From sequence record OP870145.1: a DNA stretch of 64,000 bases. One strand, 5' to 3'. This DNA comes from Escherichia phage vB_Eco_F26. Under the pieces are notes generated by a model. It was not told the DNA's origin. It made no database searches and worked only from the letters and a program-made list of their open reading frames with translations. Made by a program: the position numbers and the translations under genes. Position 1 is the stretch's first letter, and the number at the start of each line of letters is the position of its first letter. Positions 42,711 to 43,098 of this stretch are shown here, piece by piece.

Positions 42711-42768
42711 GGGTAATAGTATCACAACTAAAACCCTATGTAAACAACTTTGTGAAATTATTTTAAAT
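42711..42768. repeat. Promoter-containing direct repeat, copy A (flanks IP cassette)
   Basis: ...aatagtatcac...gtaaacaactttgtgaaattattttaaat; 28-bp exact core shared with 43071-43098. Confidence 0.7.
42716..42745 (-). promoter_or_regulatory. Early promoter (-35 GTTTAC / -10 TACTAT)
   Basis: Within repeat shared with 43041-43098. Confidence 0.5.
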
Positions 42769-43015
42769 CTTCTAATCGTTTCTTCATCTTAGAACCATTT
42801 TTAGCGATTTCGCCTGCATCAGAGCATAATGCTAAAAGCGCTTTAACTTTAGTTTGGTCTCCTTTAAAAGATGAAGGATCGACTGCAGCAGCAAGTTCTT
42901 TAATACGAGAGAAAAGACGCTCAGCTTCAGCTAAAGCCATTCCAAGCTTTACTTCCATACCGTGTGAAGATTCAGTGATAGTAGTTTTTGTAGCAAACTC
43001 TTTGAAAGTTTTCAT
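42758..43015 (-). CDS. Internal-protein (IP)-like capsid-injected protein (ipI position)
   Basis: 85 aa; MKTFKEFATKTTITE capsid-targeting-like N-terminus; immediately downstream of 57B as ipI is in T4. Confidence 0.6.
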   Translation of the reverse strand: MKTFKEFATKTTITESSHGMEVKLGMALAEAERLFSRIKELAAAVDPSSFKGDQTKVKALLALCSDAGEIAKNGSKMKKRLEDLK

Positions 43016-43040
43016 TTTATTTTCCTAATTAATTTTGATG

Positions 43041-43098
43041 AGATAATAGTATCACTACCTCATCAGCATGTAAACAACTTTGTGAAATTATTTTAAAT
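43041..43098. repeat. Promoter-containing direct repeat, copy B
   Basis: Same element as 42711-42768; contains early promoter 43046-43075. Confidence 0.7.

Follow-up and report, generated by a model that had tools for sequence, protein, structure and literature searches.

The window analysed here, a 64,000-nt stretch of DNA from Escherichia phage vB_Eco_F26 (OP870145.1), comes from a Tequatrovirus, and the 1.4-kb region around the gene of interest is 97-98.7% identical to those of ECP2301, KRT47, pSs-1, ime09, RB51 and others. On the minus strand, in the direction of transcription, gene 1 (dNMP kinase) is followed by 57A, 57B, ip5, tRNA.4, tRNA.2 and a cluster of ten tRNA genes. An initial annotation of this DNA had proposed an internal protein (IP)-like cassette in the ipI position, directly downstream of 57B/acb1, with an 85-aa ORF at 42758-43015. 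The ORF is present and, as a correction to that annotation, lies like all its neighbours here on the minus strand (N-terminus MKTFKEFATKTTITE), the preceding gene is Acb1 by its Pfam match, and the IP assignment is borne out by a capsid-targeting leader of the IP type and by the place of the gene between 57B/Acb1 and tRNA.4. The features of the locus, and a comparison cassette from elsewhere in the window, are given below.

43088-43543, minus strand: 57B/acb1 (anti-CBASS nuclease), the conserved left anchor; Pfam PF23474 Acb1, E 2.6e-60; PHROG 755
43035-43103, minus strand: upstream module (copy A), the ip5 promoter; -35 TTTACA at 43074-43069, TG-extended -10 TACTAT at 43051-43046
43016-43034, minus strand: ip5 5' untranslated spacer, with the Shine-Dalgarno AGGA at 43026-43023; part of a second short repeat
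42971-43015, minus strand: ip5 codons 1-15, the predicted capsid-targeting propeptide MKTFKEFATKTTITE; from translation and BLASTP against T4 IPI
42758-42970, minus strand: coding part of mature Ip5, 70 aa plus stop; 100% identity to RB15 Ip5; PHROG 3499
42760-43008, minus strand: exchangeable segment, non-homologous between ip5 of the window and ipI of T4; from global alignment in 20-nt steps
42705-42773, minus strand: downstream module (copy B), the promoter of tRNA.4; -35 at 42744-42739, -10 at 42721-42716
42505-42687, minus strand: tRNA.4, a 60-aa predicted membrane protein, the conserved right anchor; PHROG 1692, E 3e-34; RB51 and T4 annotation
42215-42508, minus strand: tRNA.2
34220-34664, minus strand: comparison cassette, ipII between two copies of a different early-promoter module; follows lysozyme gene e directly

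The left anchor shows 100% amino acid identity to T4 57B (tblastn). The product of the 85-aa ORF shows 100% amino acid identity to Ip5 of phage RB15 (GenBank Z35082.1, CAA84462.1) and matches PHROG 3499, 'internal head protein', with E 1e-49. The same gene is annotated Ip5 in the RB51 record, with copies listed in T6, T2, RB15 and RB70. The locus is the ipI-position internal-protein locus of a T-even phage, here with the allele ip5. This gene was already known, having received its name and its GenBank entry in 1994 (Z35082.1; Repoila et al. 1994, EMBO J 13:4181). Besides their identical products, RB15 and the window share the place of ip5 right after 57B and the upstream module. However, the RB15 slot holds four IP genes (57B-ip5-ip9-ip7-ip8-tRNA.4 in Z35082.1), whereas in the window ip5 stands alone and tRNA.4 follows directly.

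Among the 818 phage records that match the region, 268 (about a third) carry an Ip5 at least 80% identical to this one; the gene is absent from T4 and many relatives. The family is tiny. A word-indexed homologue search with Ip5 returned only five near-identical clusters, and an exhaustive phmmer search over 1.84 billion representative proteins returned three, with no wider Ip5 family among them. The sole Pfam match, to DUF7890 (E 0.076), lay below threshold and was discarded as noise.

According to a review of Black's work (PMC9026906), IP propeptides are 10-19 residues long, capsid targeting is directed by residues 4 and 7, which are aromatic, and gp21 cleaves after L/I-x-E. Ip5 agrees with all three of these rules. 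Its first seven residues, MKTFKEF, are those of T4 IPI, with F4 and F7 at the key positions, and the predicted propeptide ends in a gp21-type motif, I13-T14-E15, the counterpart of I17-T18-E19 (MKTFKEFTSTTTPVSTITE) in T4 IPI. The initial annotation had named absence of capsid-targeting processing as a reason to give up its reading; the processing motif is present in the Ip5 sequence. Four features expected of a T-even internal protein are therefore found together in Ip5: an MKT(Y/F)xEF-type leader, a gp21 motif, a position in an IP locus and membership of a named IP family.

The best-known occupant of this slot is ipI of T4, whose product IPI* (Ip1) is an injected inhibitor of GmrSD from E. 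coli CT596. T4 ipI and ip5 have in common the slot, a promoter module on either side, the first seven residues and the ITE motif, but the mature regions are unrelated. In BLASTP of Ip5 against T4 IPI, similarity is confined to residues 1-22, so that the alignment covers the leader only and no homology of mature Ip5 to IPI* was detected. The predicted mature protein has 70 residues, 13 of them K or R, and a pI of 9.2. AlphaFold2 models Ip5 with moderate confidence (pLDDT 71) as an antiparallel two-helix hairpin formed by helices 17-44 and 54-84. This predicted hairpin differs from the compact alpha/beta fold of IPI* (PMC3012670). A PDB sequence search with Ip5 gave no match, and a Foldseek search of the model against the PDB gave nothing at E <= 0.001; generic helical hairpins (the LSD1 tower, designed helical bundles) were rejected as fold relatives on the same threshold. 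Since mature Ip5 is unlike IPI* in both sequence and predicted fold, the analogy between the two is one of class membership only.

The ORF had been described as lying between direct repeats, and the repeats are real: a repeat finder returned 42705-42773 and 43035-43103, 69 nt each at 83% identity and 330 nt apart from start to start. The exact core, given earlier as 28 nt, measured 32 nt when both copies were read (42738-42769 and 43068-43099). The 29-nt core string of the initial annotation occurs exactly twice in the window, even with three mismatches allowed, and not at all in 100 dinucleotide-preserving shuffles. A second short repeat (42682-42698 and 43010-43026, 94%) runs from the ribosome-binding site through the ATG to the second codon (AAA).

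The interpretation of the repeats as promoter modules also holds, as early-promoter anatomy is seen at both copies by sequence reading and by promoter scan. On the coding strand, each copy opens with the end of the gene before it (three codons and the stop). An A/T-rich tract (TTTCACAAAGTTG) comes next, then TTTACA, 17 nt of spacer and TG-a-TACTAT; a Shine-Dalgarno and ATG follow about 20 nt beyond the -10. The preceding gene is 57B in copy A and ip5 in copy B, and both contribute the same codons (GAT TTA AAA TAA). A consensus scan found TTTACA-17-TACTAT with an upstream TG at both copies, which fits the PST/T4 promoter consensus TTTACW-N17-TAYWAT (Comeau 2014, PMC4122927). One correction concerns the roles of the two copies. 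They do flank the ORF, but the downstream copy is the promoter of tRNA.4 and not ip5's own; it probably also drives the downstream tRNA cluster.

Because the number of promoter-like sites in the region is not above that in shuffles, the function of the modules is argued from homology to T4. Alignment with T4 shows near-identical modules on both sides of ipI, and promoters are annotated at the two corresponding places in the Lutter genome record. In a T4 time course (PMC9697503 supplement), ipI and trna.4 RNAs are early and 57B and 57A RNAs are middle, which points to an active promoter between 57B and ipI. The same data give ipI an early RNA and a late protein, and IP proteins accumulate late. 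No late promoter was found directly upstream of ip5; a TATAAATA late-promoter motif within gene 1, 605 nt ahead of where 57B starts, is kept only in T4-close relatives.

Two early promoters may resemble each other simply because a common constraint acts on them, in which case the modules would have no role in exchange and the slot would vary by unrelated mechanisms. At least 12 early-promoter-like sites on the minus strand of the window have GTTTAC, and several also have TTTCACAAA upstream (TTTCACAAA..GTTTAC); the overall count of promoter-like sites in the region is not above chance. Part of the likeness between the copies is thus early-promoter consensus, but the identity in the coding ends is not. 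Exact identity goes on for 13 nt beyond the promoter motif that they share and reaches the final codons and the stop of genes that are unrelated. The two proteins, 57B and Ip5, have the same C-terminus, ...DLK*, and an identical 12-nt sequence specifies it in each gene, GATTTAAAATAA (GAT TTA AAA TAA, at 43088-43099 and 42758-42769), so the 5' edge of the repeated module lies inside coding sequence. Constraint by itself also fails to account for three independent natural indel or replacement junctions inside modules, and for chimeric modules that join the 5' half of one type to the 3' half of another. We regard this as the least probable of the readings considered, and very improbable in itself. 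A similar ending, ...YLK* (TTTAAAATGA / CTAAAATAA), is seen in IP genes of relatives.

We compared the interval between 57B and tRNA.4 in T4, RB51, Lutter, IME537, RB15 and 36 viral contigs encoding a 57B relative (74-100% identity, one 33%). In the genomes with an identified tRNA.4, between 80 and 1664 bp separated its start from the stop of 57B, and the slot held 0-5 ORFs with an MK(T/S)(Y/F)x(E/D)(F/L) leader or close variant. The initial annotation had called for a comparison of the 57B-ipI-tRNA junction among relatives and staked its reading on the locus not being invariant; the slot proved highly polymorphic, with indel junctions inside the promoter modules.

Three pairs of genomes locate the junctions. 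Contig L038 equals contig L007 minus ip5, and the 330-nt difference is bounded by two module copies; judged from sequence, this deletion is exactly the product that recombination between the repeats flanking ip5 would be expected to give. L007, like IME537, has a second IP gene after ip5, which the window lacks, and the alignments of the window with L007 overlap by 24 nt in the -10 and the 3' hairpin arm, the putative crossover stretch. Against T4, the flanks on both sides are at least 95% identical, and the differing segment, 42760-43008, runs from about codon 3 to just before the downstream module. As non-homology is confined to this segment, the exchanged unit is the part of the gene that encodes the mature protein. 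The homology arms are the promoter, ribosome-binding site and leader on one side and the next promoter on the other. Flanking by promoters, though common, is not obligatory, since many relatives have a first IP gene that overlaps the stop codon of 57B and no promoter separating the two genes.

A leader and similar upstream modules are common to all IP genes, and arrays reach 4-5 IP genes, as might be expected if an ancestral IP gene had once been duplicated in tandem together with its promoter and the present arrangement were what remains, the mature parts having diverged and cassettes no longer being exchanged. Several findings make such a history quite unlikely. The mature parts are unrelated in sequence and in predicted fold, whole cassettes differ between near-identical phages, and an exact core of 32 nt next to coding DNA that has diverged completely speaks for recombination or conversion in the recent past. 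In addition, an Ip5-family member (48% identity) occupies the other IP locus in slur03-type phages: in slur03 (L005, 2501-2782) it lies right after the lysozyme gene and overlaps the lysozyme stop, which indicates that the family has moved between the two IP loci.

That other locus has the same design in the window as the T4 ipII/ipIII locus by lysozyme e. The initial annotation had pointed to the same architecture at 34221-34665, and we agree: the ORF at 34278-34580 (minus strand, 100 aa) is ipII, with a match to PHROG 7857, 'internal virion protein' (E 4.5e-55), and it is flanked by a 56-nt repeat (34220-34275 and 34609-34664, 89% identity). The module sequence at this locus (GTTTACTTTCTCCTAGAATTGTGATAGTAT) differs from that of the ip5 module, and ipIII is absent from the window. 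Lysozyme e is thus followed directly by ipII, and then by a 179-aa PHROG 1488 protein of unknown function (33625-34164, minus strand) with a weak match to terminase large subunit.

Both ip5-type modules have a hairpin whose arms bracket the -10. The arms are TGATGAG (43065-43059) and CTCATCA (43042-43036) in copy A and ATAGGGT (42739-42733) and ACCCTAT (42714-42708) in copy B, and the corresponding RNA folds have energies of -14.8 kcal/mol (z -3.3) and -13.7 kcal/mol (z -3.05). A terminator scan found no terminator at either module, and no T-run follows the hairpins, which rules out a terminator role for them. We gathered 59 modules from the same slot in related genomes and retained 22 non-redundant representatives. 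Palindromes occur in two registers relative to the -10; per-module shuffles were therefore used instead of a covariation count on a single consensus. A perfect palindrome longer than 95% of shuffles (p<0.05) was present in 6 of the 22 modules, with about one expected by chance. The stem sequences differ between modules (TGATGAGGTA, GATAGGGTA, AGGTCTATAG, AGGGCTAT, TAGGACTA), and several of the modules that lack a palindrome are visibly chimeras of two types, one supplying the 5' half and the other the 3' half. Chimeric modules are found at L030:4469, RB15:683 and L023:5174. Weak, A/T-rich stem-loops of IP-associated elements were already mentioned by Arbiol et al. 2010 (PMC2839356), and the -10 hairpin is a detail of a known element rather than a new one.

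The modules resemble the PeSL cassettes known from the pairs RB49/phi1, PST/T4 and nt-1/KVP40 in their parts: both have an early promoter with an A/T tract, a stem-loop, and an ATG with its ribosome-binding site. As in PeSLs, the promoter has a 17-nt spacer, with the A/T-rich tract before it and the ribosome-binding site and ATG after it; the modules flank accessory ORFs and coincide with indel junctions, which fall within the element in L038 versus L007, window versus L007 and window versus T4, and in the chimeric modules. The stem-loops, however, are of different kinds. That of a PeSL is G/C-rich, lies upstream of the promoter and is a terminator, and no G/C-rich stem-loop of this kind appeared in the terminator scan of either module; the ip5-module hairpin is A/T-rich, straddles the -10 and lacks a T-run. 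PeSL cassettes are further marked by mini-circles that are excised in the course of infection (Arbiol 2010).

Much of this has precedents. By the account of Arbiol 2010 (PMC2839356), Repoila et al. 1994 saw PeSL-like sequences at both of the highly variable T-even IP loci. Arbiol and colleagues themselves regard the IP-associated elements, which are built on T4 early promoters, as analogous rather than homologous to PeSLs, and propose that they may account for the plasticity of the IP loci (PMC2839356). Comeau 2014 (PMC4122927) likewise gives Repoila et al. 1994 the credit for the finding that IP genes are shuffled in linkage with promoters, and Silas et al. 2025 (PMC12373910) describe IP loci as a hotspot of injected anti-defence proteins. 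The idea of a swappable slot is a rediscovery of what these four studies hold (Repoila 1994, Arbiol 2010, Comeau 2014, Silas 2025). The only new framing is the adjacency to 57B, now known as Acb1, and no new mechanism follows from it.

For this locus, the reading of a swappable slot for injected effectors put forward in the initial annotation is supported by the polymorphic slot, the leader and the module junctions; packaging, injection and anti-defence activity of Ip5 are steps that we infer. Taken as a whole, we consider it very probable that ip5 is an IP gene between T-even early-promoter modules, that its product is packaged and injected and likely acts against a host defence, and that the slot is exchanged via the modules. 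Following established T4 biology, the Ip5 precursor would enter the prohead core through its leader, and gp21 would remove 15 residues to leave a 70-aa basic helical hairpin. Some hundreds of copies would then be ejected with the DNA into the host, where, by analogy with Ip1, Ip2 and Ip3, the protein would most likely block a defence. Copy A would drive ip5 and copy B tRNA.4, and with an early promoter fresh ip5 RNA would be made immediately after infection. The modules and the shared leader codons would offer homologous recombination 20-70 nt of identity, so that phage recombination could delete, insert or replace IP genes with neighbouring transcription undisturbed. No paper that finds Ip5 in virions, cleaved or ejected turned up in the literature searched.

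The GmrSD type IV restriction enzyme that is inhibited differs among Ip1, Ip2 and Ip3, and there is no cross-protection (PMC12373910), which makes a GmrSD subtype the leading candidate for Ip5. By this analogy, the target of Ip5 is likely to be a particular GmrSD-type type IV restriction enzyme; no paper assigning it a target was found in the literature searched. Its small size and basic character (pI 9.2, 13 K+R in 70 aa) would also suit a protein that is chiefly structural or DNA-associated, a head filler that neutralises charge or helps core assembly, as has been proposed for IPIII, instead of an anti-defence effector. A head contains IPs at about 360 copies, and its assembly is slowed when IPIII is lost (PMC9026906). 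Yet ip5 is missing from T4 and many relatives and the slot is empty in some, which is hard to square with a structural need, and all three T4 IPs have specific GmrSD targets (PMC12373910). We therefore judge a primarily structural role unlikely. 

Within the anti-defence reading, a more specific version can be framed, in which Ip5 inhibits a defence beyond those met by Ip1-3, such as a distinct GmrSD subtype or another modified-DNA sensor, by means of its helical hairpin, a fold unlike that of IPI*, and in which the -10 hairpin is no by-product but has been selected as a signal, perhaps as a hotspot of recombination or a site of RNA processing. With regard to the latter, the stem sequence varies by module type and the hairpin is broken in chimeric modules. 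We offer this combined proposal tentatively, as one that may be right but on balance probably is not.

The locus is a textbook case of T-even diversification of injected anti-restriction proteins, and its correct recognition guards against announcing ip5 or its promoter repeats as novel. Since 2025, when all three T4 IPs were found to block specific GmrSD enzymes, Ip5 has been an obvious next candidate for the same assays. As ip5 is present in T2/T6-type phages and absent from T4, it could help explain host-range differences relevant to phage therapy.

Several observations were made in neighbouring parts of the window. Downstream of the slot, exactly one gene is missing, tRNA.3, which measures about 380-410 bp in RB51, Lutter and T4, and the tRNA.4 stop overlaps the tRNA.2 start (42505-42508); among the best phage matches listed, this tRNA.4/tRNA.2 junction was crossed only as two separate pieces. 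Farther on, a 161-aa ORF of PHROG 16521, of unknown function (41172-41657, minus strand), splits the tRNA array between tRNA-Met and tRNA-Ser. Comparable positions of the array are taken by segB in T4 and by 'homing/HNH endonuclease' genes in RB51 and Lutter. SegB-driven amplification was considered as a link to the nearby tRNA region and set aside, as the paper concerned names neither IP genes nor 57B.

Two further minus-strand ORFs with IP-type leaders lie in neither of the classical IP loci but in the interval from the tRNA cluster to the genes on the e.8 side. One (38727-39290) encodes 187 aa and begins with MKTYAEFLTE followed by A at the putative cleavage point; the other (39552-39887) encodes 111 aa and begins in the same manner with MKSYAQFLNE and A. 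Both belong to PHROG 2280, 'unknown function', and both are preceded by a G/C hairpin with a T-run, with the TATAAATA late-promoter motif also present before the 111-aa ORF. The 187-aa ORF has matches in 164 phage records; of 40 that were sampled, those with annotation all call it 'hypothetical protein' or 'Phage protein'. The second ORF is 157 aa long in phage G50, and the 111-aa copy in the window may be truncated. Together, the two ORFs could be an unannotated third internal-protein locus.

Overlapping the first of these ORFs is a perfect 350-bp tandem duplication, in which two 300-nt copies (38114-38413 and 38464-38763) are 100% identical. Within it lie the 3' end of the 187-aa ORF with the terminator of that ORF, an early promoter and the opening 12 codons of the gene that follows, and its junction creates a chimeric 40-aa ORF (38377-38499). 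Absent from the closest relatives, the duplication is a segmental amplification private to this genome or else an artefact of assembly.
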